Origin: Candidatus Nomurabacteria bacterium
GTDB taxonomy: Bacteria > Patescibacteriota > Minisyncoccia > Phycocordibacterales > UBA9973
Direction of reading: 5' to 3'
DNA length: 58,495 nt
Assembly: GCA_943354905.1 (NCBI GenBank)
Contig: CALRDL010000004.1
Coordinates: forward strand, 1 to 58,495
Notes under the pieces: generated by a model
Told to the model about the DNA's origin: nothing
Databases searched by the model: none
The model's input: the letters and a program-made list of their open reading frames with translations, nothing else
Shown here: in pieces, positions 340 to 55,158 of the stretch
Position numbering within the stretch: position 1 is the stretch's first letter
Layout of the letters: each line of letters opens with the position of its first letter
Position numbers and translations under genes: made by a program

Positions 340-828
340 TTATTGCGTATATTTGAAGTAACATTTAAAAGCCTCTTTAAAAGGCATACAATATTTATTG
401 GGATGTGAACACAGATCTTTTTTTATTTCTTCCACAGACATTAAGGAAAAACTAGATATTTCATTAGGATCTGGAAAAATTTTCTTCATCTTGCCTATGA
501 AAAGGTGATGTATAGCTCTCTCTTGTTTGTTTACGATATCGAATCGGCCTGCATTTTTTAATGCAGTTACTATTCCAAGTTCTTCTTTTAGCTCTCTTTT
601 TGCCGCAATTATGTAGCTTTCTTTTTGTTCGACATGTCCACCAGCAGAAGAAGTTATTTTATTTGGGTAAGTTTCTTTATTACTTGATCTTTTACATAAC
701 AAAATTTTTCCTTCTTTATTAAGAAGTAGAATATGGACACTTCTTGTAAAAAGTTTCAGCTTTTTCGCTTCTAGCTTTGTTCCAATTTTTATCAACCTAT
801 CTTTTTTATCAACTAAATCGTATTTCAT
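340..828 (-). CDS. NUDIX hydrolase (IPP isomerase-like subfamily)
   Basis: Nudix box GGHVEQKESYIIAAKRELKEELGI; RSVHILLLN and KRSSNKETYP segments. Confidence 0.85.
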   Translation of the reverse strand: MKYDLVDKKDRLIKIGTKLEAKKLKLFTRSVHILLLNKEGKILLCKRSSNKETYPNKITSSAGGHVEQKESYIIAAKRELKEELGIVTALKNAGRFDIVNKQERAIHHLFIGKMKKIFPDPNEISSFSLMSVEEIKKDLCSHPNKYCMPFKEAFKCYFKYTQ

Positions 829-1695
829 TTATTTAATAAGATCTTTTATTTTTTCAGTCACACGTTCAACGCTGTCATTTACAATAAATAAAACATTAAC
901 TCCTTTTTGTATAGATTGAGCGGTTGAATTAAACTCATCTAGCTGTCGTAAATCTAAAGTATTATTTATAGCTAATCTGAAATCACTGCTAGATTTTATA
1001 CATCTATCTGCTAAGCGTGCTGCAAGGTTCGGCAAAACTGGGGAAGGTGGTAGAACATATATTAAAATAAATTCACTACTTTCTTTATCTTTTAAATAAT
1101 CTCGCAAGCTAGTTAAATTTAAAGGATTCTCTTCGATAATAGCTACATTAGTTTTAGTTAAGATTTTTTCTAGATCAGTTTTCTGAATTCCATACTTACC
1201 CCTACCTGGTCTTTCCATATTTATTATAAACCCTCCTTTGGAAAGAATTTCATCAAATTGAATTTCATTTATAAAATTATAATGCTCACCATGACTTTCA
1301 TAAATTCTTCGCTCTCTAGTTGTAGTATTTACAACACTATCAAATCCCAAAGATTTTTTAATAGTTTCTTTACCTACTGCACCTGGGCCAGATATTCCTA
1401 AAATAATTTTTTTTGGTCGCTCTATTAATAATTTAGTTCTTATTTTTTCAAAAGTATCTTTTTCAATCAAACTAGGAATATTATTTAAGTTATTTGCTTG
1501 TACACCCAAACTTTTTGCTACTTGAGGCAGTGCTCTTTGCCATTCTATATAGTGTTGCATAAGAAAATCTATATTACTCTCCACGAGCTCTAAGACTTCT
1601 TTAGAAAAATGTTCTTTCAGGGAATTTAAATTGTTTCTAAATAATGCTTTCAAAGCCGAATTTTCTACATTACCTTCTTGTGTATTATGTATCAT
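829..1695 (-). CDS. guanylate kinase-like P-loop NMP kinase with ~90 aa N-terminal extension
   Basis: GISGPGAVGKET P-loop; NTTTRERRIYESHGEHYNFI resembles the guanylate kinase TTR--R--E--G--Y-F motif. Confidence 0.65.
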   Translation of the reverse strand: MIHNTQEGNVENSALKALFRNNLNSLKEHFSKEVLELVESNIDFLMQHYIEWQRALPQVAKSLGVQANNLNNIPSLIEKDTFEKIRTKLLIERPKKIILGISGPGAVGKETIKKSLGFDSVVNTTTRERRIYESHGEHYNFINEIQFDEILSKGGFIINMERPGRGKYGIQKTDLEKILTKTNVAIIEENPLNLTSLRDYLKDKESSEFILIYVLPPSPVLPNLAARLADRCIKSSSDFRLAINNTLDLRQLDEFNSTAQSIQKGVNVLFIVNDSVERVTEKIKDLIK

Positions 1696-1829
1696 AATGT
1701 GTCTGATTATATCATAAATATCTTATTTATTTTTATATCCAAAAGCTTCCATGTGGCTGATTTTGTATTTTTGGATTAAATGTGTAATATAAGAAGATGA
1801 CATTTACCCATTCCATAAATTCAATACCG

Positions 1830-2087
1830 ATGAGAATTTTGGCTTCTTTGTTGCTTTTATTATCTATCCTCTTTTTTCCTATTTGGGTTTCTATTCCAAT
1901 AGCTGTTGTAAGTATGATTTATTTCAATATTTTTTTAGAAGCTATATTTCTATTTTTACTATCAGATCTATTGTTTGGAGTAAAAGAAGTGAGGTTCTTT
2001 GATATTACATTCATATCTTTTATCTTTTCAGCTATATTTTTATTTTTGTTAGAAATATTTAAAAGGAAACTTAAATTCTATAATTAA
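1830..2087 (+). CDS. small membrane protein upstream of PBP2 (possibly a divergent MreD)
   Basis: Very hydrophobic ORF ending 4 nt before the PBP2 gene; start could be 1797 or 1830. Confidence 0.5.
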   Translation: MRILASLLLLLSILFFPIWVSIPIAVVSMIYFNIFLEAIFLFLLSDLLFGVKEVRFFDITFISFIFSAIFLFLLEIFKRKLKFYN

Positions 2088-2091
2088 AAAT

Positions 2092-3813
2092 ATGATTGTA
2101 AGATTTTTTAAAAAAAATAAAAAAAGAATAATTTCTGATGTCAATCCAGATGAGATATTTCTTGATTCTACAAATTTGGAAAATTTTGATACTCAACAAT
2201 TCGAAGGTCGAATAGAAAAACCCATCTCCGACAAGACTACTTTGATTTTAGGAAGTTTTTTTGTTTGTGTTATTATTATATTCGGTTTTCGTCTTTTATA
2301 TTTACAAATACAAAATGGTGAAGAATACAAGCTTCGAGCTGAGAATAATACTTTAGAGAAAGTTACTATATTTACTGAAAGAGGTATTATTTATGATAGA
2401 AATAAAGTGGAATTAGCCTGGAATAAGAAAACGAACATAGGAGTAGAGTCTACTCAAGAAATATCAGGACCAGTGATCCGTACATATATGTCTCCTGGAT
2501 TCTCTCATGTTTTAGGGTATGTCAGTTATCCCAAAAAAGATGCTGGAGAAAATTATTGGCAATATGAATTCAAAGGCATTGATGGACTTGAAAAAACATA
2601 CAACGACGCAATAAAAGGAGAGAATGGATCTAAAATCATAGAAGTAGATGCTAGAGGGACCATTCATTCAGAAAATATTATAAATGCACCAGCGAGAGGT
2701 GAGGGTTTAGTCACTAGTCTTGATTCAAGAATCCAACAACAATTATTTACTATAATAAAAGATACCTCGACAAAAAATTCGTTTGCTGGAGGAGCAGGAG
2801 TTGTTATGGATGCCACGAATGGAGAAGTCATAGCTTCTACAAGTTTCCCTGAATATGATTCTGAGATTCTGTCTCTAGGTAAAGATAAGGAAATCATAAA
2901 AAGTTACATAACTGATAAAAGAAAATTTTTTATGGACAGAACAATCTCGGGACTTTATACTCCGGGTTCCATAGTTAAACCATTTTTTGCTCTTGGTGCT
3001 TTGATAGAAGGAGTTATCGACCCATTAAAAGAAATTCTTTCTACTGGTTCTATATCTATCCAAAATCCATATGACAAAACTAAAAAGACAGTTTTTAACG
3101 ACTGGAAAGCCCATGGCTGGACAAATATGGCTGAATCTATTGCTGTATCAAGTGATGTGTATTTTTATACCATAGGTGGTGGATTTGAAAATCAAAAGGG
3201 AATAGGGATCTTGAATTTAGAAAAATATGCTCGAATGTTTGGCATTGGAAAAATGACTGGGGTTGATTTACCTGATGAAAAGTCTGGAACAATACCAAAT
3301 CCAGAATGGAAAGCTAAGAATTTTAATGGAGAAATATGGCGAGTTGGAGATACCTATAATACTTCTATCGGACAATATGGTTTCCAGGTGACCCCAATGG
3401 AGATGACTCGTGCAGTCGGAGCTATCGCAAACCTCGGCACACTAATGACTCCCCATTTTATTTTGAATGATAAAAATGCAGAAAATAAAGTAGAGAAAAT
3501 GGAAATAAAAAAAGAATATTACGATGTCGTGTATGAAGGTATGCGGGGGACTGTAACTTATGGCACTGCTACTCTTTTAAATGTACCTTATGTAGAAGTG
3601 GCAGCAAAAACTGGGACGGCGCAAATAGGAGTAGCTAAAGATAGAGTAAATTCTTGGGTTATAGGATTTTTCCCTTATGAAAATCCGAAATATGCTTTTA
3701 CTATAATGATGGAATCTGGACCTTCGAATGGTACAGTAAACGCAGCCAGTGTCATGCGACAACTCTTGGATTGGATGTATTGGAATACTCCGGAATATTT
3801 TTTAGCGAGTTAA
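2092..3813 (+). CDS. mrdA: penicillin-binding protein 2 (class B transpeptidase)
   Basis: TM anchor, RGIIYDRN, PGSIVKP (SxxK), SSDVYFY (SxD), KTGTAQ. Confidence 0.9.
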   Translation: MIVRFFKKNKKRIISDVNPDEIFLDSTNLENFDTQQFEGRIEKPISDKTTLILGSFFVCVIIIFGFRLLYLQIQNGEEYKLRAENNTLEKVTIFTERGIIYDRNKVELAWNKKTNIGVESTQEISGPVIRTYMSPGFSHVLGYVSYPKKDAGENYWQYEFKGIDGLEKTYNDAIKGENGSKIIEVDARGTIHSENIINAPARGEGLVTSLDSRIQQQLFTIIKDTSTKNSFAGGAGVVMDATNGEVIASTSFPEYDSEILSLGKDKEIIKSYITDKRKFFMDRTISGLYTPGSIVKPFFALGALIEGVIDPLKEILSTGSISIQNPYDKTKKTVFNDWKAHGWTNMAESIAVSSDVYFYTIGGGFENQKGIGILNLEKYARMFGIGKMTGVDLPDEKSGTIPNPEWKAKNFNGEIWRVGDTYNTSIGQYGFQVTPMEMTRAVGAIANLGTLMTPHFILNDKNAENKVEKMEIKKEYYDVVYEGMRGTVTYGTATLLNVPYVEVAAKTGTAQIGVAKDRVNSWVIGFFPYENPKYAFTIMMESGPSNGTVNAASVMRQLLDWMYWNTPEYFLAS

Positions 3814-29094: not shown

Positions 29095-29520
29095 ATGAGT
29101 AAAGGAATGAATAGAAATACAAATATCCGCACAATGAAATTGATCCGAGGAATTGGATCGGTTATCAACTGGAAAGATACTAAAAACAAGCAATTAATTG
29201 CTGGAATTTTAGCATTAAAAAATGCTGACGAAGCCAAGCGTTTTCTACGTGACCTTATGACCGAAAAAGAAATAAAAGAATTTGCGAACAGGCTCGAAGC
29301 CGCAACACTCCTTTCACAAAATGTGCAATACAACACCATCAGCGAAGACACAGGGCTTTCTTCTACTACAATTGCTCGTATTGCTAAATGGTTAGGTGGC
29401 TCGCTTGGTGGATATAGATTAATTTTGAATAGAATCATTCCCTCGAATAAACTCGGGACTTCCTCACGTCAGCATACTGCCTCTTCCAAAATTGGGAAAG
29501 GGTTGTATTTGAGTTCGTAA
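29095..29520 (+). CDS. YerC/YecD (TrpR-like) transcriptional repressor
   Basis: FLRDLMT.KEI.EF.NR, Y..I...TGLSSTTIARIAKWL..S.GGY. Confidence 0.88.
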   Translation: MSKGMNRNTNIRTMKLIRGIGSVINWKDTKNKQLIAGILALKNADEAKRFLRDLMTEKEIKEFANRLEAATLLSQNVQYNTISEDTGLSSTTIARIAKWLGGSLGGYRLILNRIIPSNKLGTSSRQHTASSKIGKGLYLSS

Positions 29521-29539
29521 TAGAAAATTATTTGAAACC

Positions 29540-29569
29540 AACCCCTTCTCAATTTTGAGAAGGGGTTTT
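29540..29569 (+). terminator. intrinsic terminator (candidate attenuator 3:4 hairpin)
   Basis: AACCCCTTCTCAA-TT-TTGAGAAGGGGTT followed by a short T tract. Confidence 0.7.
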
Positions 29570-29635
29570 GCGTTCTACCCAGATACGCTATGGTTACCCA
29601 CTATTTGGGATGAATTGTTCTTCAAAGGAGAAAAA

Positions 29636-30358
29636 ATGTTTGAAAAAATTGAAAAAATCCGGAGAGATGTAACAAAAGCTCTCCGGACGCTTCCAATCGC
29701 GGGCCCAGCAGCTCGCTATGACCTAGAGTACAGCTCTGCGACCGAACTCGCAGAGCTAACCGGAGTGCGGTGCCAATTTGAAGGCACGCATTACTGGTTT
29801 TGGTCGCCAGTACTCGATGAGATCTTTTTGCAGGAATTCGTCATTCCTGACAAAAAGATTATTGATGTCGGTGCCGGAAACGGCGCCTTAATCAAGGAAC
29901 TCATTTCACTCGGATGCCAGCCCGAGTGCCTTTCTGGAGTCGACATCTCCAGGAGGGCAGTGAGCCGAATTAAGGAAACCGGGGCAAGAGCTTTTCACGG
30001 CTCCCTTTCCGGCATCCCAACCGGCGAAAAATGGGATGTTATTTTTCTTTCGTACTTTGTTGATCGTGATAATGACCAACGAGGTACATTTGAAACAGCC
30101 GTCAGAATCCTCGCTGACGGTGGGGTGATAGTCCTCGAAGGGCTATTCCCCTGCGTTCTCCAAGATTCCATGGGTACAAGCTACGGTACCCAAAATGTCA
30201 CCTTCGGTGAAGATGCCGAGGAGGATATTAGACTGGTAACTGCCGAGTTCGCTCGGCTCGGTATGAAACTTCAAAAACGTAACGATGGGGAACGTTATGT
30301 TTACTCGATGGATGGGCCCGAGACCCTACCGTCGAAAACGCTTGTTTTTTCTCGGTAA
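29636..30358 (+). CDS. class I SAM-dependent methyltransferase
   Basis: IIDVGAGNG, GVDIS, WDVIFL, L..GG.IV; AGGAG before ATG 29636; GC-richer than flanks. Confidence 0.85.
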   Translation: MFEKIEKIRRDVTKALRTLPIAGPAARYDLEYSSATELAELTGVRCQFEGTHYWFWSPVLDEIFLQEFVIPDKKIIDVGAGNGALIKELISLGCQPECLSGVDISRRAVSRIKETGARAFHGSLSGIPTGEKWDVIFLSYFVDRDNDQRGTFETAVRILADGGVIVLEGLFPCVLQDSMGTSYGTQNVTFGEDAEEDIRLVTAEFARLGMKLQKRNDGERYVYSMDGPETLPSKTLVFSR

Positions 30359-30366
30359 TCGTCGTG

Positions 30367-30412
30367 GTTGCTCCCTGTAGAATGAAATATGTTTCTGCAG
30401 GGCGCGACTTTA
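30367..30412 (+). terminator. terminator-like hairpin after the methyltransferase
   Basis: GTTGCTCCCTGTAGAA...TTCTGCAGGGCGCGAC-TTT. Confidence 0.5.
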
Positions 30413-30438
30413 GTATTAAAAAAATTAAAAATAAAAAT

Positions 30439-31158
30439 ATGTATAAAAAATATAGAAAATTAAATCCAAAGATAGACAATAAAAATTGGCAGATATTATT
30501 TACTACCCAATTTCAGAATATGCAAAAATTAAATGCCATAGCAACATTTTGGATAAATGGTTTTTCGAAACTGGGAATTGATAATTCAAGACGACCTAGT
30601 ATAAAAGAAATAAATAAAATATCAGCAAAATATACCGGCTACCGCTATGTGCAAACCAAAATGAATGTAATTATGTCGAAAATTGGTTGGTATGAAATGG
30701 TAGCTCGTTATGAAATGCCTGTGACAAACTTTGTACGCAAACCAAGCGAACTTGACTACTGTGATGAACCCGATAGCTTCCATGAGATAATGGGCCACAT
30801 CGCAATGTATATAGATAAAGAATACTCAGACATGATCCAAACTTTGGCAAAACTATATATAGACGCATATTATGCAAAGCGTGAAGATCTTTTGAAAGAA
30901 ATTGATTTTATAAACGACTATGTGATAGAACTCGGACTTATTAGAGAACCATCTGGAATAAAAGCATTTGGGGCGACATTGTATTCTTCTGGTGAAGTGA
31001 AAGAAGCATTCAAAAAGAAAAATCAAAGAGTTTTGGGAAATAAAATTCCTAATGAGAAAAAGGGGTACGACAGGTCAAAACCACAAGGTAGATATTATAT
31101 TATTGAGTCGATAGATCAAATAAATAAATTACTTGTACAAATACGAAATAGATTCTAA
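30439..31158 (+). CDS. biopterin-dependent aromatic amino acid hydroxylase (divergent PhhA-like)
   Basis: DEPDSFHEIMGH and VIELGL iron ligands, KAFGATLYSSGE; start 30439 preferred. Confidence 0.85.
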   Translation: MYKKYRKLNPKIDNKNWQILFTTQFQNMQKLNAIATFWINGFSKLGIDNSRRPSIKEINKISAKYTGYRYVQTKMNVIMSKIGWYEMVARYEMPVTNFVRKPSELDYCDEPDSFHEIMGHIAMYIDKEYSDMIQTLAKLYIDAYYAKREDLLKEIDFINDYVIELGLIREPSGIKAFGATLYSSGEVKEAFKKKNQRVLGNKIPNEKKGYDRSKPQGRYYIIESIDQINKLLVQIRNRF

Positions 31159-35461: not shown

Positions 35462-36847
35462 TTATTTTTGAATTTTAAGACCAAGTTCTTTCAATTGTTT
35501 TTCAGATATTGGGGCCGGAGAACCCATCATCAAATCTTTACCTTCTCCGGTTTTTGGAAATGCAATTACTTCTCGAATATTTGGTTCATTTTGGAGAATC
35601 ATTGCAATACGATCGATACCAGGAGCAAATCCTCCATGTGGAGGTGCACCATAAGTAAAGGCTTCGAGCATGTGTCCAAATTTCTTTTGTTGATCTTCTT
35701 CGGAAATATTTAAAAGTTTAAAAACTTGTTTTTGTAAATCTCTTTCGTGAATTCGAATACTTCCAGAAGAAAGTTCATAACCATTCAAAACCAAATCATA
35801 TGCATTTGCGCGAATAGAAAACAAATCCTCACCCCTCATAAACTTTTCTTTATCTTCTTCTTTGATCGAACAAAATGGATGATGCACTGCTTGTACTTCG
35901 CCTTCATCAGTTTTTTCAAACATTGGAAAGTCTAATACCCAAGCAAAAGCAAGTTCATTTGGATTATTTTTATTTATTCGCATATCTGGCTTATCGGAAC
36001 CATATTTTTCTAAAGATTCTTTGTATGATAATCTAGGAAAAGGGATCTGGGTAAAATGTTTTTCTGGGTAAACATTTTTAACTAATTCGATAAACATCGC
36101 CTCAGTGTATTCGAGCACTTCTTCTTGAGTAACAAAAGACATTTCAAAATCAAGTTGTGTAAATTCTGGTTGTCTATCTCCTCTAGTATCTTCATCTCTC
36201 ATACATCTAGCAATTTGAAAATATTTTTCAAAACCAGCCACCATAGAAAGTTGCTTGAATTGTTGTGGTGATTGTGGCAACACATAAAATTGACCATTAA
36301 AAGTCCGAGAAGGAACCACGTATTCCCTAGAACCTTCAGGCGTACCTTTCATTAATATTGGTGTTTCAATTTCAACAAAGTCGTTCTCATGCATATACTT
36401 TCTAAAAAAAGTAATTATTTTATCTCTCATTCGAATATTTTTCTGCATTCTTTCAGTGCGTAAATCAAGATATCTATATTTCATTCTAATATCTTCGCCA
36501 ACTTCCATAGTATTTTCGTTTATTTGAAACGGTGTGGTCTCTGCTTTGTTTAAAACTTCTATATTCAAAACTTCGATTTCTACCCCTCCACCTTGCTTGG
36601 CATTTTTATCATTTCGCTCTTTTACTAAACCTTGAACTTTCAAAACCCATTCTGGACGGATTTCTTTTGCTGAAGCGATAGCCTCAGGATGGGTTGGTAA
36701 AGTCACACATTGCACTTTCCCAGTCATATCTCGCATATCAAAAAATACCATTTTACCCTGATCACGTCTGACATCCACCCAACCAGCAATAACAATTTCC
36801 TTACCAATATGCTCTTTTAAATCTTTTATATAAATTCTATCTTTCAT
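35462..36847 (-). CDS. aspS: aspartate--tRNA ligase (short form)
   Basis: OB-fold, RYLDLR, LPQSPQQFKQ, RDED.R.DRQPEFTQLD.E, HHPF, GAPPHGG.A.G.DR. Confidence 0.95.
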   Translation of the reverse strand: MKDRIYIKDLKEHIGKEIVIAGWVDVRRDQGKMVFFDMRDMTGKVQCVTLPTHPEAIASAKEIRPEWVLKVQGLVKERNDKNAKQGGGVEIEVLNIEVLNKAETTPFQINENTMEVGEDIRMKYRYLDLRTERMQKNIRMRDKIITFFRKYMHENDFVEIETPILMKGTPEGSREYVVPSRTFNGQFYVLPQSPQQFKQLSMVAGFEKYFQIARCMRDEDTRGDRQPEFTQLDFEMSFVTQEEVLEYTEAMFIELVKNVYPEKHFTQIPFPRLSYKESLEKYGSDKPDMRINKNNPNELAFAWVLDFPMFEKTDEGEVQAVHHPFCSIKEEDKEKFMRGEDLFSIRANAYDLVLNGYELSSGSIRIHERDLQKQVFKLLNISEEDQQKKFGHMLEAFTYGAPPHGGFAPGIDRIAMILQNEPNIREVIAFPKTGEGKDLMMGSPAPISEKQLKELGLKIQK

Positions 36848-36897
36848 GTGATTTTACGAAATCATACCGCGCAACGACAATTAAAGCGCGGTAATTG

Positions 36898-37090
36898 AAA
36901 AAGCAAAAATCGCCTCTTCAAACTTACCTTATTTGATAAATTTGCAGGGGCGATTCTTGCGCTTGTGGTGAGGCGCTATCGAACCACGGTGCCACCCTAC
37001 TTCGTCACGCTATAGCTCGGTTACGAGCAAAAGCGGATATCTCTTTTAAGCATCTCCAGCCTCCCCGTTGTCAATGGCTCAACAGCTTCT
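36898..37090 (-). ncRNA. T-box riboswitch (Asp specifier GAC, ultra-short Stem I)
   Basis: AGGGTGGCACCGTGGTTC pairs with GAATCGCCCCT (antiterminator); overlapping long terminator with U tract; GAC in the short 5' stem; upstream of aspS. Confidence 0.85.
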
Positions 37091-37125
37091 TTGTATAATA
37101 ACATGCCTAATTATAAAATCAAACT

Positions 37126-37668
37126 TTAAAATTTATCTGGAAATTCAAATTCATGCACAGAGCTATTATGAATTACTTCGTGCACTTCTTCGTGCAATAT
37201 ATTATGAAGTAAACGAATAATTCCTCCGGAAGTCACCACTAAAATTTTCTTTTCTTTCGAGTTATTTTGTATATACTCGATAAAAGCAAAAACTCTTTGT
37301 GTCACATCTTCGACTGATTCACCACCATACGGACGATAGTCGTATTTTTGATTTTTATCTTTTTCTTTCATTTCCCCCGTAGTATCCATTTCACTAAATT
37401 TTTTTCCTGCAAGTGCTCCAAAATCTCGTTCTCTTAATCTCACATCAAATTTTATTTCTAAATTAAGTTTTTGATTTAAAATTTCTGATGTTTGTTTACA
37501 CCTCAATAAATCAGAGGAATATATTTCATCGAAGTCATTTTCTATTTCTGATAATGTCTTTTGGGCTTGTTCGATACCTTCTCGGTTCAAAGGACTATCA
37601 ATTTGCCCCGTTACAGCACCAGTTGCATTGTTCACTGTTTTTCCATGACGTAAAAAATACATTTTCAT
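37126..37668 (-). CDS. histidine phosphatase (phosphoglycerate mutase family)
   Basis: LRHG.T, SSDLLRC.QT, RLRERDFG, GGES. Confidence 0.9.
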   Translation of the reverse strand: MKMYFLRHGKTVNNATGAVTGQIDSPLNREGIEQAQKTLSEIENDFDEIYSSDLLRCKQTSEILNQKLNLEIKFDVRLRERDFGALAGKKFSEMDTTGEMKEKDKNQKYDYRPYGGESVEDVTQRVFAFIEYIQNNSKEKKILVVTSGGIIRLLHNILHEEVHEVIHNSSVHEFEFPDKF

Positions 37669-37709
37669 AATTAATTTTATTATACTTCATAATTTTTAAG
37701 ATTCATAGT

Positions 37710-37748
37710 AAAAAAGGCGGATCGTTATTTAGACAGACCCGCCTCTTT
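37710..37748 (-). terminator. intrinsic terminator after the ATP-grasp gene
   Basis: AAAGAGGCGGGTC-N12-GATCCGCCTTTTTT. Confidence 0.7.
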
Positions 37749-37769
37749 GTGCGTTGGCTAGACGTGATC

Positions 37770-38801
37770 TTAGCCGATATCCTCCTTCAAACCCACATGG
37801 TAGTTCACGACGCCATTACCACCGTGAACTGGCAGGTTTTTACTTGCCGTTACGGTAAGTTCGGCAAGCTTGCCATTCACAAGATGGACAGCCAGCCGAA
37901 TGAATCTGTCAGCATCTGCGAGTGGGAAGGTTTTTTGCTTTACATACTTCTGGACTACAGTTTCCTTCCCGATGGCATCGAAGTATACCCCTTTTGCCCC
38001 TGAAGAAAATACCTCTTTGGTTACGAACGGACCGTTGTAGGTCGGAGGGATGAACTTTTTCAATTCATCCAACTCCTCACTACTCATTGACCCATAGTTC
38101 TTAAAGAGATACTGATCAAGAAAAGGCAAAGCCATAACTGCCTTGCTTCCCAAGCCGTGACGAGGTGGGTTTATAAAACTATCAGGCCTCTCTTTCCAGC
38201 GAGAAAGAAGCATCCGAGATGCCTTTTCCCCGCAGAGTGGAAAGTCGAGAAAGATTCCATTCTCAGGAAACTTTTGTGCTTCGAGTTGTTCCTCTGAAAA
38301 CACCTTGACTCTTCGGCCAGTGAATTCCGTAAGCTTTTGAGCAAAATACTTCTGCTCGCGAGCGTAAAAACTTTCTTTACGTCCAAGAAAGATGTGAACG
38401 TCATCTGTAACGTACTGGGCGAGTAAAGTGAGCAACTTTTGACGTTCTCCTGCCCCACTTTCGTTGCGACAAGCGAGCGCAAAACCGAGACCATGCTTGT
38501 TGGAAGGATCAATTTCTGCGATCTTCCAATTACCATCCTTGTCAGCCATCACATCCACCCTTACCAACCTCGGAGGGATATGCAGGTGGGTAGTCCCAGC
38601 CTCCAGATAGGTTTCGTTAAGAGTTGCTGAGAGAGACTTGAGCAAAAATCCATCCTGAACTTCAGTGGTAGCGATGAGGAATTTGTTCACCAATTCCCCC
38701 ATTCTAGCCAATTTTACCAGATCCTCTCGAGTAATCCTAAACAAATGCTCATCCAAGATGAACTCATGGGGTTTAGAAACCAAATAATCCAAGTTTTTCA
38801 T
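37770..38801 (-). CDS. circularly permuted ATP-grasp ligase-like protein (GSP synthase/CP_ATPgrasp-like)
   Basis: VRVDV...WKIAEID near the N-terminus; SKA, FVTKEVFSSGAKGV, VVQKYV near the C-terminus; GC-richer, strong SD. Confidence 0.6.
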   Translation of the reverse strand: MKNLDYLVSKPHEFILDEHLFRITREDLVKLARMGELVNKFLIATTEVQDGFLLKSLSATLNETYLEAGTTHLHIPPRLVRVDVMADKDGNWKIAEIDPSNKHGLGFALACRNESGAGERQKLLTLLAQYVTDDVHIFLGRKESFYAREQKYFAQKLTEFTGRRVKVFSEEQLEAQKFPENGIFLDFPLCGEKASRMLLSRWKERPDSFINPPRHGLGSKAVMALPFLDQYLFKNYGSMSSEELDELKKFIPPTYNGPFVTKEVFSSGAKGVYFDAIGKETVVQKYVKQKTFPLADADRFIRLAVHLVNGKLAELTVTASKNLPVHGGNGVVNYHVGLKEDIG

Positions 38802-38917
38802 TATTAACCCCCTCCCAGAGGCTTTTCAAAGAACAATCTTTCCGTTTCCTCTAGGAAACAAAGAACGGCGCTCTTGCGCCGGTTAATGGATTCCTTGTTT
38901 TTAGGTAGAAAAAGAAA

Positions 38918-39001
38918 TCAACAGAACAGCGCAAAAGCCTTGTGCTCTACGCTCCACCAAGAATTTAATATTAATTTGTTTATTTTTAACTTATTCTTCA
39001 T
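38918..39001 (-). CDS. Trp-Trp attenuator leader peptide (MKNKLKINKLILNSWWSVEHKAFALFC)
   Basis: 27-aa ORF with tandem TGG TGG between the Trp operator and the ATP-grasp gene, downstream of trpR. Confidence 0.7.
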   Translation of the reverse strand: MKNKLKINKLILNSWWSVEHKAFALFC

Positions 39002-39022
39002 ATTTTTATAAATTCATACAAA

Positions 39023-39058
39023 ATACTCTTGTATCTATGTACTAGTACATGATAACAT
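39023..39058 (-). promoter_or_regulatory. extended -10 promoter plus TrpR-like operator
   Basis: Minus strand TGTTATCAT-GTACTAGTACATAGATACAAGAGTAT; a 20-bp identical copy lies at 55135..55154. Confidence 0.65.
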
Positions 39059-39116
39059 AAACCAAAATAAAATGCAAGTATTTTATTAGAGTAATGTGAA
39101 AAACTACTTTTAAGCC

Positions 39117-39413
39117 TTATTTTCCGAACTTTTTTAGCATTTGGTGAAATCCACCATCCTTATTTCGAAGCATTCGAGATCCGCGCGTGACAGTACTGAT
39201 GCCCAGACCCAAATCCCCTGCTACAGATCTATGAGTCTCTTTGTTATTTAATTTCTTTATTATTTGCCAACGCAATGCCAAATTTTCAATCTCATTTGGA
39301 GTAAACATATCTTTTAGAAAAAGTGCGATAAAATCTTTATCTGAATTTAATTTGGAAAAAACTTCTAATAATTCTTTTTTATATTCCGAAATTTTTTTAT
39401 TTATGTGTTTCAT
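39117..39413 (-). CDS. trpR: Trp repressor family protein
   Basis: FL.D.FTPNE......RWQIIK.L, R.VA.DLG.GISTVTRGSR.L; near trpS. Confidence 0.85.
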   Translation of the reverse strand: MKHINKKISEYKKELLEVFSKLNSDKDFIALFLKDMFTPNEIENLALRWQIIKKLNNKETHRSVAGDLGLGISTVTRGSRMLRNKDGGFHQMLKKFGK

Positions 39414-39443
39414 ATTAAAGTATAATGTATTTGGAATAAATCA

Positions 39444-39959
39444 CTACCACTTACTTGGCATTTGTATATCATAACAAAAATCAAAATCTTGAGAAAGATC
39501 CTGGTGATTTTTTAAAATATAAGGAATATTACGAACCCTAGAATTAGGATATATACCTACAATTTTTTTATTTTGATCAGCAACTACAATTATAGAGGAC
39601 TTTCCGGATTCAACTTCTTCCCCCATTAAACCGTAAGCATCGGCACCTACCTCTCCACTAACATTATCAGCAGATAACCAACCACCCATACAAGCAATCA
39701 ATACACCACTCATACCACAATCTTCAAGTGCACAGTAACTCATATACTTTTCCATAGCGTATACATAAAACTTATATTCCAAAGTGTACAGATGTTCATA
39801 CTCTACAACATTTTCTGAAACAATGGGAGCTTGATCTCCTAATTTTAATGGACCAAAAGATTTGACTGAACGTGGTGAAGAAAAAAATAAAACACAAACA
39901 AAAAATAATATGATAATGCATGTACTAACTATTATTTTTATAATATATTTTTTAGTCAT
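39444..39959 (-). CDS. membrane-anchored hypothetical protein
   Basis: N-terminal TM; C....C..SG....C.GGW motif; family not recognised. Confidence 0.55.
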   Translation of the reverse strand: MTKKYIIKIIVSTCIIILFFVCVLFFSSPRSVKSFGPLKLGDQAPIVSENVVEYEHLYTLEYKFYVYAMEKYMSYCALEDCGMSGVLIACMGGWLSADNVSGEVGADAYGLMGEEVESGKSSIIVVADQNKKIVGIYPNSRVRNIPYILKNHQDLSQDFDFCYDIQMPSKW

Positions 39960-40005
39960 TTTTAATCAACAAATTCAACACAAACAATGTGTGGATAAAC
40001 ATATT

Positions 40006-40956
40006 TTAATACACATCTACTCCTATTTTCTCTCTAACTTCTTTCATTTTAGCTGAGGCGACGGCTTTGGCGCGCTCGCCACCTGCGTTCAGGATGGCGA
40101 GCGCGCCGTCTATATCTTTCTCATATTCTTTCCTCTTTTCCCGCAGTGGCGCGATAAATTTTTCCAAATCTTCGATCAATAATTCTTTTAATTCTTTATA
40201 CTTACCTGCTTTTTCTTCATAAATTTTTTTTAATTCTTCTTCGGGGCGCAAAAGTTTGTGAATTGCAAAAACATTTTCTGGAATTCCTCCGCTTGAATCC
40301 GTGACAATACTCATCACCGATGATTTTATTTCTTCGTATTCTGCAAAAAGTGGAATAGTGTTTCCATAACTCTTGCTCATCTTGCGTCCGTCTGTACCCG
40401 GGACTACTGCGACTTCTTCCATAATCATTTCTTTTGGTAATTTAAAAGTCTGGCCAAATGTATTGTTGAATTTTTCGGCTGTATCTCGAGCGATTTCTAT
40501 GTGTTGTTTCTGGTCTTGTCCTACTGGCACTATATCAACATCATAGAGTAATATATCAGCAGCCATTAAAAGAGGATAATTAAAAAGTCCGACATTCATA
40601 TCTTTGCCATTATCTCTTGCATCTTTGTAAGCAACAGAACGCTCTAGATAAGCCATAGGGGTTATAGTATCGAAAATCCATGCGAGTTCTGTATGCTCTG
40701 ATACATCAGACTGCTTGAATACAATAGATTTTTTAGGGTCAAGACCTAATGCTAAATAATCAATCAAAACAGCAATGATGTTTTCTTTCATGATTTTAGA
40801 ATTTTTTAAGGAGGTCATGGCATGATAGTCGACAATCATAAAATAAACGTCGTTATCATTTTGTTGGCTTATAAGCTGTTTCATCATTCCGAAATAATTC
40901 CCGATATGGGGTTTACCGGACGGCTGAATACCAGATAATAAGACTTTTTTAGACAT
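40006..40956 (-). CDS. trpS: tryptophan--tRNA ligase
   Basis: SGIQPSG.PHIGNY, YPLLMAADILLY, VPVGQDQKQH.E, KMSKS. Confidence 0.96.
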   Translation of the reverse strand: MSKKVLLSGIQPSGKPHIGNYFGMMKQLISQQNDNDVYFMIVDYHAMTSLKNSKIMKENIIAVLIDYLALGLDPKKSIVFKQSDVSEHTELAWIFDTITPMAYLERSVAYKDARDNGKDMNVGLFNYPLLMAADILLYDVDIVPVGQDQKQHIEIARDTAEKFNNTFGQTFKLPKEMIMEEVAVVPGTDGRKMSKSYGNTIPLFAEYEEIKSSVMSIVTDSSGGIPENVFAIHKLLRPEEELKKIYEEKAGKYKELKELLIEDLEKFIAPLREKRKEYEKDIDGALAILNAGGERAKAVASAKMKEVREKIGVDVY

Positions 40957-41056
40957 ATTTATATATTATCATAATAAATTTTTATATCCACACATTACCC
41001 ACATCATTACACACTTTTTAACTTTTCTAAAATTTTGACTGTGCTAGAATAACTGA

Positions 41057-42460
41057 ATGGTAAAGAATATAAAAAGTTTCAAATCTGCAAATATTCGCAT
41101 TCCTCCACAAAGCATACCCTCCGAACAAGCGGTCTTGGGTTCTATTATGCTCCGCAAAGATGCTATGCACGAAGTCGAAGACATGGTAACTCCGGATTCT
41201 TTTTATGTAGAAAAACATAAAATAATTTTTCAAGCGATGCTCGACCTTGGAAATAAAAATGAACCGATAGATATGCTTTCTCTTTCTACGAAACTTGGAG
41301 AAAGAAAACTTTTAGAACAAATCGGAGGCAATCAATACTTGGCAGAGATAGTAAATACTGTCCCTTCGAGTACAAACGTAAAACACTATGCAGATATTGT
41401 TCAAAAAAAATATGTCTTGCGTGGACTAATCGAAGCGGCTGATTATATTTCCGAACTTGCTTTCGAGGAAGGCGATGACCATATGGATGACATTCTCGAC
41501 ATGGCCGAGAAGAAAGTTTTTAGCGTAGTCTCTTCTCCAAAGAATCAAAAATTTGTAAATTTAAAAGATGCTCTACCTGAAGCCTATGAAAGACTAGAGA
41601 AACTTCATGAAAATAAAGGTATGATCCGCGGACTACCGACTGGTTTTCGAGATTTGGACACTATGCTTTCTGGTTTACAAAATTCTGATTTAATAATTCT
41701 GGCAGCTCGTCCATCTATGGGTAAAACCACTCTGGCTTTAGATATAGCTCGTATGGCTGGAGTAAAACATGAGAAATCTATTTTAATATTTTCCCTAGAA
41801 ATGTCTTCTCAACAACTCGTAGACCGTATGCTCTCTGCTGAGAGTCGAGTTAATGCTTGGAATCTCCGCACTGGGAACCTTTCTTCGGATCGAGAATTTT
41901 CTCAACTTCGCGATTCTCTCGGTAAACTCGCCAAAGCAAAAATCTACATAGATGATACTCCTGGAAATTCTATAGTTCGTATGAAAGCTTTGGCTCGTAG
42001 AATAAAAGCTGAGAAATCTTTAGATTTGATCGTCGTCGACTATTTACAATTAATGACGACTTCTAAAAATTATGATTCGATGGTGAATCAAGTTACTGAA
42101 ATCTCTAGATCTTTAAAAGGTCTCGCCAAAGAACTCGATGTACCCGTCCTTGCCCTTTCCCAGCTCTCTCGTAATGTTGAATCTCGTGGTGGCAAACCTC
42201 GCCTGTCTGACCTCCGTGACTCTGGATCTATCGAACAAGATGCCGACGTGGTTATGTTCATCCATAGTGAAGATAAAGGAAAAGAAGAATCTGATAAAAC
42301 AAATATAGTTGAAATATTGATCGAAAAACACCGAAATGGACCGACTGGAAAAGTCGAACTTTATTTTGATCTCAAAACTACGACCTTTCTTAATCTTGAA
42401 AAAAGTAATTTGAGTGAATTTTCCGCAGCGAAGGTAAGTAGTGACTTAGATGAGTTCTAA
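41057..42460 (+). CDS. dnaB: replicative DNA helicase
   Basis: AARPSMGKT, FSLEM, VDYLQL, LSQLSR, DLRDSGSIEQDAD, KHRNGPTG. Confidence 0.97.
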   Translation: MVKNIKSFKSANIRIPPQSIPSEQAVLGSIMLRKDAMHEVEDMVTPDSFYVEKHKIIFQAMLDLGNKNEPIDMLSLSTKLGERKLLEQIGGNQYLAEIVNTVPSSTNVKHYADIVQKKYVLRGLIEAADYISELAFEEGDDHMDDILDMAEKKVFSVVSSPKNQKFVNLKDALPEAYERLEKLHENKGMIRGLPTGFRDLDTMLSGLQNSDLIILAARPSMGKTTLALDIARMAGVKHEKSILIFSLEMSSQQLVDRMLSAESRVNAWNLRTGNLSSDREFSQLRDSLGKLAKAKIYIDDTPGNSIVRMKALARRIKAEKSLDLIVVDYLQLMTTSKNYDSMVNQVTEISRSLKGLAKELDVPVLALSQLSRNVESRGGKPRLSDLRDSGSIEQDADVVMFIHSEDKGKEESDKTNIVEILIEKHRNGPTGKVELYFDLKTTTFLNLEKSNLSEFSAAKVSSDLDEF

Positions 42461-55122: not shown

Positions 55123-55128
55123 ATTTCT

Positions 55129-55154
55129 ATACTCATGTACTAGTACATGATAAC
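55129..55154 (-). promoter_or_regulatory. TrpR-type operator with -10 element upstream of paralog 3
   Basis: Minus strand GTTATCAT-GTACT-AGTACATG-AGTAT fits GNACT-N8-AGTNC with 1 mismatch. Confidence 0.6.
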
Positions 55155-55158
55155 GCAT

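Follow-up and report, generated by a model that had tools for sequence, protein, structure and literature searches.

A putative two-layer tryptophan switch in front of a predicted permuted ATP-grasp ligase gene and a histidine phosphatase gene in a Candidatus Nomurabacteria genome

We examined a 58,495-nt stretch of DNA from a Candidatus Nomurabacteria bacterium (GenBank assembly GCA_943354905.1, contig CALRDL010000004.1, positions 1 to 58,495), referred to below as the window, and in it the control region between a gene of the tryptophan (Trp) repressor family, trpR, and a 343-aa gene at 37770..38801, which we call X. The evidence points to a two-gene cargo, X and a histidine phosphatase gene, that is likely switched on by Trp starvation through two control layers of the Escherichia coli trp type. 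We hold the regulatory part with greater confidence: taken by itself, it very probably represents a known mechanism in a new lineage, fitted with modular cargo. The genome assembly comprises 750,840 bases in 31 contigs (35.7% G+C, 96% completeness). On the minus strand the order is trpS, a 171-aa open reading frame (ORF), the TrpR-family gene, the control region, X, a hairpin, the histidine phosphatase gene and aspS. A preliminary description of this DNA had reported trpS, an ORF and trpR in this order; all lie where it placed them, with family matches to TIGR00233 (trpS) and PF01371 (trpR). Below, loci from relatives are numbered L001 and up, and genomes G000 and up. The elements of the locus are:

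39117..39413, minus strand: TrpR-family repressor gene, 98 aa (PF01371 64.8 bits, cut-off 27, model positions 5-86 of 88)
39049..39077, minus strand: promoter, read from the sequence; -35 TTGCAT (39077-39072), 17-nt spacer, extended -10 TGtTATCAT (39057-39049)
39037..39050: operator palindrome ATGTACTAGTACAT with core GTACTAGTAC (39039-39048); adjoins or overlaps the -10 and spans the probable start site
38918..39001, minus strand: leader ORF MKNKLKINKLILNSWWSVEHKAFALFC, 27 aa; tandem Trp codons TGGTGG (38959-38954), stop TGA (38920-38918)
38927..38953, minus strand: anti-antiterminator hairpin of segment 1, AGCGTAGAGC (38953-38944), and segment 2, GCTTTTGCGCTG (38938-38927)
38871..38938, minus strand: antiterminator, segment 2 paired with segment 3, CGGCGCAAGAG (from the minimum free energy (MFE) fold, RNAalifold and pair counts)
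38919-38912 with 38896-38889, minus strand: inner helix of the antiterminator, GATTTCTT with AAGGAATC
38856..38881, minus strand: intrinsic terminator (3:4), CGGCGCaagaGCGCCG and TTCTTTGTTT (terminator scan: 6 pairs, all G-C)
38816-38808, minus strand: strong ribosome-binding site of X, GGGAGGGGG
37770..38801, minus strand: X, a 343-aa permuted ATP-grasp ligase of the glutathione synthetase / GspS / YgiC superfamily by predicted fold
37710..37743, minus strand: terminator-like hairpin after X, read from the sequence; GGCGGGTC, 12-nt loop, GATCCGCC, TTTTTT
37126..37668, minus strand: histidine phosphatase, His_Phos_1, 180 aa (PF00300 152.9 bits)

The TrpR-family protein aligns with E. coli Trp repressor chains at E 2e-6 and keeps the stretches TP..E..L..R and GI.T.TRGS, in which we take the T of 'TP', the R of 'l..R' and 'TRGS' to be the Trp- and DNA-contacting residues of TrpR. 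The extended -10 of the preliminary description and the sequence that follows it (39048-39039) are in place. The same TTGnnT-17-TA(T/G)CAT layout was found in L001, L002, L004, L006, L011 and L032-L039; a generic promoter scan omitted the trp promoter because its -35 matches at only 3 of 6 bases. The 10-mer core GTACTAGTAC occurs 4 times in the genome (0.84 copies expected). The 14-mer ATGTACTAGTACAT is present in 16 of 121 same-genus genomes, usually as one copy each and always beside trpR or ahead of a Cys-rich gene, compared to 0 of 121 for a reversed control pattern (one locus of G251, an unpublished genome, came up in this search and was not used). The window has a single 10-14-bp palindrome; in five relatives there are two ACTAG motifs, with 8 bp between them.

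Several further sites in the window concern the repressor family and its operator. A second operator copy (55135-55148, within 55128-55155) lies between the minus-strand genes 56826-55159 and 55158-53353; the 19-mer TTATCATGTACTAGTACAT at 55128-55155 is identical to the copy in the trp promoter. It fronts a 601-aa Cys-rich protein without a family, one of two tandem paralogs, and the same operator-before-Cys-rich-gene arrangement was seen in G276 (L054) and G234 (L055). The site at 55135-55148 probably serves as another target of TrpR, in this case with no leader. A DnaA-box-like element, TTATCCACA (TTTTCCACA in some), stands a few bases 5' of the TrpR-controlled -35 in most relatives (L001-L006, L011, L013, L014, L032-L039 and L059-L069). 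The window carries TTATCCACA after trpS (39990-39998) and TTTTTCACA after trpR (39095-39103), and its genome has 26 copies of the element against 9 expected. The region 29095-31158 (plus strand) holds another, more divergent gene of the Trp_repressor family (59.9 bits), whose upstream promoter is rich in palindromes. The gene is followed by a hairpin, a methyltransferase gene (29555-30358) and a gene for a biopterin-type aromatic amino-acid hydroxylase (30364-31158). This region may be the 'Tyr case' mentioned in the preliminary description.

Downstream of the operator, the previously noted 27-aa ORF with two adjacent Trp codons (WW) is in place, and its TGA stop sits within the 5' strand of the antiterminator. 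The genome contains 500 TGGTGG sequences on both strands, 62 of them within ATG-started ORFs of 8-60 aa, so a single WW mini-ORF is not rare and it is the recurrence at the same place that counts. The leader start is located ∼45 nt downstream of the -10. In L001, L004, L006, L011 and L038, which have the operator class TACTAGTATG, the leader ATG comes right after the operator, ∼7 nt past the -10, and the leader mRNA of these loci may therefore be leaderless.

The MFE fold of the whole leader is the antiterminator (-40.4 kcal/mol, z -3.1, 1 of 200 shuffles as good), which recruits the 5' arm and the loop of the true terminator. The preliminary description had seen a weak terminator and a pairing of AGCGTAGAGC with GCTTTTGCGCT after the Trp codons. 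That pairing is real (-11.4 kcal/mol), but it is segment 1:2 and not a terminator; the true terminator with its six G-C pairs, further downstream at 38881-38856, had been overlooked, and the terminator is therefore not weak. Its stem (38881-38866) is followed by the U-tract and the hairpin has -11.8 kcal/mol. The trpR stop is 230 nt away on the 5' side, with a separate conserved promoter in between, and this terminator was the best of the 11 terminator-like sites found in 36800-41100 (2.6 ± 1.8 in shuffles). When the first 23 nt were masked, as by a ribosome stalled at UGG-UGG, the antiterminator was the best fold (-29.3 kcal/mol) and no terminator appeared; with masking extended to 12 nt past the leader UGA, as by a terminating ribosome, the terminator hairpin remained. 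The folding check proposed earlier thus returned the antiterminator as the MFE structure and the terminator under masking.

We also aligned 13 related attenuators, 7 from in front of X and 6 from in front of other cargo, without fitting the alignment to any structure. The RNAalifold consensus is again the antiterminator. For helices 1:2 and 3:4, 85.1% of cells are paired (33-52% after shifting the partner by 1-3 columns) and for helix 2:3, 86.2% (33-58% after shifting); helix 1:2 alone has 91% of cells paired over the 13 sequences. Helix 2:3 contains a compensatory pair, U-A in 9 sequences and C-G in 3, and its covariation score was reached by 0 of 500 shuffles. A covariance model of the alignment was searched against 24 sources, the window plus loci outside the training set. 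In the 58-kb window it gave a single sense-strand match (38845-38964, 117 bits), and it detected new copies in L065, L069, L011, L066, L059, L062, L010, L061, L064 and L013. An Rfam scan of 36500-41500 at E <= 1 found no riboswitch, T-box or leader family, its sole match being a chance snoRNA match within the phosphatase gene.

To follow the linkage of X to Trp control, we surveyed 18 X loci: the window, L001-L014 and L016-L018. Dropped from the survey were L015, in which the 5' half of X is missing, the 24-26% relatives L019 and L020, and L021 and L022, which repeat L005 and the window. L002 and L007 have identical X proteins and are therefore not independent. Trp control, which the preliminary description had wanted to see linked to the ligase in other genomes, is retained at 16 of the 18 loci in the form of TrpR, the operator or a Trp leader. 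A tandem-WW mini-ORF precedes X at 11 of 18 (window, L001-L007, L013, L014 and L016), so the WW pair named as a critical point earlier is kept. In L011 the homologous leader that follows trpR and the operator contains a single Trp codon, and L010, cut at its 5' end, shows the attenuator tail only. The TrpR gene is found in 12 of 18 loci, mostly upstream of X, downstream in L012 and L013, and divergent in L017; the ACTAGT operator is found in 11 of 18. Window-type leaders precede X (7 loci), trpE, a TrpB-like gene and other cargo. In total there are four leader families without sequence relationship to each other (SWWG..AFAxxC; ..RGWWSTRL.. in L005; ..SQIWWNSF.. in L013; ..SIWWRTL../..SNWWLTL.. 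in L003 and L014), all of which keep WW and each of which comes with a terminator of its own. The L003/L014 leaders also have their own 1:2, 2:3 and 3:4 pairings, formed by mutual complementarity of the sequence following WW, the segment after it and the core of the terminator. No usable independent promoter for the ligase gene was found in the window; a promoter-like consensus match at 38829-38800 was rejected as the X promoter, since its -10 ends on the start codon. In L003, a Sungiibacteriota-labelled contig, an S58 (DmpA-type) peptidase (335.9 bits) and a 600-aa protein without a Pfam family also precede the WW leader and X (602-3519).

TrpR orthologs (E < 1e-20) are present in 9 of 41 same-genus genomes. 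We examined 16 cassettes of trpR followed by the operator from same-genus genomes; 13 leaders carry tandem WW at the same register, the leader of the trpE cassette has a single W, and two cassettes (trpD and one of the 'CPDY' type) have none. The cargo behind the switch is:

X and the histidine phosphatase: window
trpE (TIGR00564 539.6 > 517.7), then shikimate-pathway/prephenate genes by our own sequence reading: G210 (L052)
trpD: G227
TrpB-like enzyme (NF009057 741 > 366): G115
315-aa protein without a family plus N-methyl-L-tryptophan oxidase (NF008425 320 > 257): G279 (L070, 395-2535)
PPDK_N protein: G256
'CPDY' proteins: G121, G255
small ORFs, with or without prs: L035, L036, L037, L059, L062, L064, L066
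essentially nothing before aspS: G213

The slot holds at least ten kinds of cargo and is empty in one genome (L032). The leader of the trpE cassette, MKFWRGAEASAFALFC, is plainly homologous to the window leader, and in G210, G227 and G115 trpE with the shikimate genes, trpD and the TrpB-like gene occupy the slot equivalent to that of X. Since a homologous leader and operator precede trpE, the TrpB-like gene and the N-methyl-L-tryptophan oxidase gene, the switch would turn genes on when Trp is short. The gene content of the L070 cassette suggests a Trp-controlled salvage of Trp from N-methyl-Trp. As a separate observation, the cassettes at L034 667-1338 and L065 397-1203 drive 223-268-aa proteins without a family that share a CPDY motif, and in L034 the CPDY protein is followed by a His_Phos_1-like protein without the RHG motif.

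In the window genome (96% completeness) no match to trpB, Trp_syntA, IGPS, TrpD-type transferase, chorismate-binding or chorismate synthase models was detected, and all of these Trp and chorismate models gave matches in 14 control genomes. The one PALP enzyme of the window genome lies elsewhere and is cysteine-synthase-like by our own reading of its sequence, not by a family scan. A supply of precursors for Trp synthesis (phosphoenolpyruvate (PEP), phosphoribosyl pyrophosphate (PRPP), Ser) was considered as a role for the cargo and rejected, as the window genome has neither trp genes nor chorismate synthase. Among the relatives, G210 (trpE cassette) lacks a PALP (TrpB) match and matches IGPS only weakly, on a contig other than that of the cassette, and G227 (trpD cassette) has no TrpB and no IGPS match. 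Tiny genomes such as these seem to hold fragments of the Trp pathway.

X has no Pfam (E <= 0.1) or NCBIfam (0.01) family, and thus no GSH_synth_ATP or GSP_synth match, and no PDB chain was found with it by sequence or by profile. Its AlphaFold model (26-row alignment) has a pLDDT of 87.3 and a pTM of 0.88, and Foldseek with this model retrieved YgiC, glutathione synthetases, GspS and trypanothione synthetase at E ∼1e-11 (1.5e-11). The predicted whole-chain fold fits the permuted ATP-grasp ligases, in agreement with the 'permuted ATP-grasp-like' label of the preliminary description, and on this evidence X represents a minimal form of the circularly permuted ATP-grasp ligases. Invariant in the family are D83, E96, D98, N101, K262 and S266-S267-G268, and R81 is nearly so; by their pattern these appear to be the residues expected of a working enzyme of the permuted ATP-grasp type. 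The fungal enzyme Cp1B is described as requiring R139, D141, E163 and N165 for activity (PMC12568646), a set that the R/D/E/N residues of X recall when mapped by pattern only. X is probably an active carboxylate-amine ligase of the glutathione-synthetase type.

X is also a rare protein. A word-indexed search of 5.8 billion proteins gave 28 relatives, the window's own included, and the few named ones come from candidate-phyla bacteria. In an exhaustive search, 71 representatives came in at E <= 0.001, of which 14 reached <= 1e-10 and 6 reached <= 1e-30; most are 400-450-aa cousins. A Pfam scan of 12 of the representatives left 11 without a family and gave one weak ATP-grasp_3 match below cut-off. 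No longer, fused form of X was found, which by the nature of the search is weak evidence. Only 9 of 201 same-family genomes have any match to X, with strong ones restricted to G000 and G003. The X proteins of the surveyed loci are 36-57% identical, the X clade is split from the cousins at 100/100 support in the protein tree, and Trp elements occur in both main X branches. With a GC content of 0.458 (G+C at third codon positions, GC3, 0.485), X differs from the rest of the window (0.343).

The unit outlined in the preliminary description lacked the conserved histidine phosphatase, which belongs to it. The window and L001-L013 each have a His_Phos_1 gene after X, giving 15 pairs at 14 loci (two in L003); the copy in L001 runs off the contig and that in L009 stops after 49 aa. 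L017 has no phosphatase after X, and L014, L016 and L018 end too early to judge. The phosphatases of X loci are 56-75% identical to that of the window, and R7, H8 and G9 (the RHG motif) are invariant in 12 sequences. The protein has no specific equivalog: its best NCBIfam match, of the CobC type, scores 122.4, below the cut-off of 162.9. The 403-435-aa X cousins adjoin a small protein in L023-L027 (five same-family genomes), and Pfam gave HAD-like matches at or near the cut-off for two of these proteins. Two unrelated types of phosphatase beside two branches of one ligase family would suggest, from gene order and family matches, a ligase-plus-phosphatase pathway acting on a phosphorylated compound; for X and its phosphatase to be paired in one pathway we see about even chances. 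Co-occurrence of the phosphatase and X across the 201 family genomes was uninformative, as His_Phos_1 paralogs are present in 130 of them; paralogs of 39-48% identity sit in unrelated contexts. That the phosphatase contains no Trp residue is not significant, since 21 of 102 ORFs of similar size likewise have none.

The way in which the switch would operate can be outlined from these elements. E. coli regulates its trp operon by TrpR repression at trpO and by ribosome-mediated attenuation at trpL. By the same logic, the Trp-bound TrpR-family protein would sit on ATGTACTAGTACAT and block initiation. When charged tRNA-Trp is scarce, the ribosome would stall at UGG-UGG and cover segment 1, so that the 2:3 antiterminator forms and transcription reads through. 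When Trp is plentiful, the ribosome would reach the UGA in the 5' strand of the antiterminator and mask segment 2, leaving the 3:4 terminator to form; with no ribosome on the leader, 1:2 would form and 3:4 would terminate. As to the products, X may by analogy activate a carboxylate as an acyl phosphate and then join it to an amine, and as a unit X and the histidine phosphatase would most likely carry out a ligase-then-phosphatase sequence on a phosphorylated small molecule. The pair fills a variable slot behind trpR in which relatives keep Trp-biosynthetic or Trp-salvage genes. That Trp-salvage enzymes share the slot and that X keeps its Trp control across unrelated leaders both speak for a use of X under Trp starvation. 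A bolder proposal, which we regard as tentative and rather doubtful, is that X and the phosphatase form a hitherto undescribed ATP-dependent two-step pathway that supplies, captures or spares Trp in ultra-small bacteria from which all trp and shikimate genes have been lost. The pair would then do duty for the trp operon, the TrpB-like indole salvage or the N-methyl-Trp oxidase that relatives have in this slot.

A number of observations weigh against a Trp-starvation switch with X and the phosphatase as its cargo. The TrpR-family protein scores 54.4 bits with TIGR01321, below the equivalog cut-off of 67.25, and is therefore a family member and not an equivalog. The window leader has no clear Shine-Dalgarno sequence. 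Covariation in the attenuator is modest, with only 3 pairs per structure varying on both sides, and the aligned sequences are related, so the pair counts represent conservation with some compensation and not proof. Two of the X loci (L009, L018) have no Trp element within ∼1 kb upstream, L012 has a downstream TrpR only, and in L003 the second copy of X lacks a leader. The same slot also takes cargo with no evident Trp link, namely the PPDK_N protein, the 'CPDY' proteins and small ORFs. Between X and the phosphatase lies the terminator-like hairpin, which the terminator scan omitted because its loop exceeds 8 nt, and the two genes differ in GC3 (0.485 for X, 0.221 for the phosphatase); both features speak against a simple operon, so that co-transcription and a common history of the two are uncertain. 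The split into a GC-rich X and an AT-rich phosphatase recurs in L002, L004 and L008, and in L003, from a host with a GC of 0.46, the composition of X matches its surroundings. This pattern suggests that X was replaced in place by a copy from a higher-GC donor. Finally, the cargo is an ATP-consuming ligase without an obvious route to tryptophan, and we know of no chemistry of its enzyme class that yields tryptophan.

The most serious competitor is that the slot is a relic, in which the trp genes were lost and X arrived horizontally behind a leftover operator and leader, so that its Trp control is accidental. The slot is indeed a hot spot for varied cargo and can stand empty, X is rare and GC-rich against its background, and L009 and L018 do without Trp elements, all of which would fit. 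Against it, the Trp element persists at 16 of 18 loci and across proteins only 36-57% identical, and WW and separate terminators are present in four unrelated leader sequences, including loci of a different candidate phylum. L003 has a WW leader though its ORF list shows no TrpR gene, and the position of TrpR upstream, downstream or divergent to X, depending on the locus, points to repeated re-association. With a host genome that has no trp or chorismate genes, the gene pair would therefore be selected Trp-starvation cargo, and we consider the relic improbable. The preliminary description had offered a Trp-regulated ligase and a cassette replacing the trp operon as alternatives; each holds in part, as the slot is the trpE, trpD or TrpB-like position in relatives, and what is disfavoured is a pure relic.

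It is less probable still that the system senses something other than Trp, with the regulator a YerC/YecD-type paralog that has another ligand, the hairpin a trpR terminator and the WW mini-ORF untranslated. The sub-cut-off TIGR01321 score, a weaker YerC/YecD match (30.8 bits), the weak leader ribosome-binding site in the window and the abundance of WW mini-ORFs by chance would be in line with it. Against this stand the distance of the terminator from the trpR stop and the separate promoter between them, the trpE, trpD and TrpB-like genes driven by the same cassette, the register of WW in 13 of the 16 cassettes with a single W in one more, the placement of the leader stop within the antiterminator strand, and the presence in the window of the more divergent TrpR-family gene elsewhere. 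A small conserved peptide directly 5' of an ATP-grasp enzyme also brings to mind a ribosomally synthesized and post-translationally modified peptide (RiPP)-like pair, in which the 27-aa peptide would be a precursor modified by the enzyme and not a regulatory leader. Graspetide-like systems combine an enzyme-specific precursor peptide with a classical ATP-grasp fold, a combination that does not apply to this locus, and we give this idea hardly any credence. The Trp-starvation switch with two layers of control is the reading that we prefer.

Compared with the E. coli trp operon, the locus shares a repressor of the TrpR family, a palindromic operator that contains CTAG and lies over the promoter, two adjacent Trp codons in a short leader, the alternative helices 1:2, 2:3 and 3:4, of which the last is a G+C hairpin followed by a U-tract, and a leader stop positioned so that a terminating ribosome would mask segment 2. 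The dual control of the enterobacterial kind noted in the preliminary description is in this way supported by sequence, folding and relatives. Unlike the E. coli operon, it belongs to an ultra-small candidate-phyla host, trpR lies immediately upstream and next to trpS, the operator in the window is one short palindrome, and the cargo lies outside Trp biosynthesis and differs from genome to genome. In Chlamydia trachomatis trpRBA, as outlined in PMC7755916, trpR lies directly 5' of an intergenic region with additional Trp-dependent attenuation of Trp-salvage genes; the attenuation described there involves the iron repressor YtgR, and the cargo is trpBA. The two systems are alike in having trpR upstream of Trp-dependent attenuation, in Chlamydia in a reduced-genome, host-dependent bacterium; they differ in that the window has a classical hairpin switch and a ligase and phosphatase as cargo.

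Eukaryotic-type glutathione and homoglutathione synthetases (PDB 3kal, 2hgs, 1m0w) are 12-14% identical to X, which has no Pfam GSH_synth_ATP match and is ∼100-130 residues shorter. The GspS/trypanothione synthetase domain, E. coli YgiC/YjfC and fungal Cp1B show no sequence-level match to X, even by profile; X further differs from GspS, YgiC/YjfC and Cp1B in its histidine phosphatase partner and its control. YgiC and YjfC are reportedly peptide-spermidine ligases.

The flanking genes on the trpS side are:

40006..40956, minus strand: trpS, tryptophan--tRNA ligase, 316 aa (TIGR00233 288.9 bits, cut-off 176.75; PF00579 205 bits)
39444..39959, minus strand: 171-aa ORF between trpS and trpR, with a hydrophobic N-terminal stretch

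The 171-aa ORF has no Pfam or NCBIfam family above cut-off. It is not found between trpS and trpR in L001, L002 and L004 and lies outside the conserved cassette. There are no tRNA genes in 36500-41200 of the window. Contigs near-identical to the window assembly are contained in lake water metagenome-labelled runs.

The usual picture of candidate-phyla bacteria is one of auxotrophs about whose regulation little is known. In the open-access literature on TrpR in Patescibacteria and on leader-peptide attenuation in the Candidate Phyla Radiation, we found no description of a system of this kind. Here a textbook two-layer amino-acid switch, a repressor plus a translation-coupled attenuator, appears to be intact in a 0.75-Mb genome, and it seems to serve as a socket for alternative cargo: a pathway start, single steps, a salvage oxidase, or a ligase-phosphatase pair. 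For the orphan X family, the regulation would name the condition, Trp starvation, in which these proteins matter. With X, the glutathione-synthetase fold would have its smallest version known so far, a point that may be relevant to enzyme evolution and biocatalysis. The plug-in slot may provide a testable handle on how cells cope with the loss of an essential amino acid.

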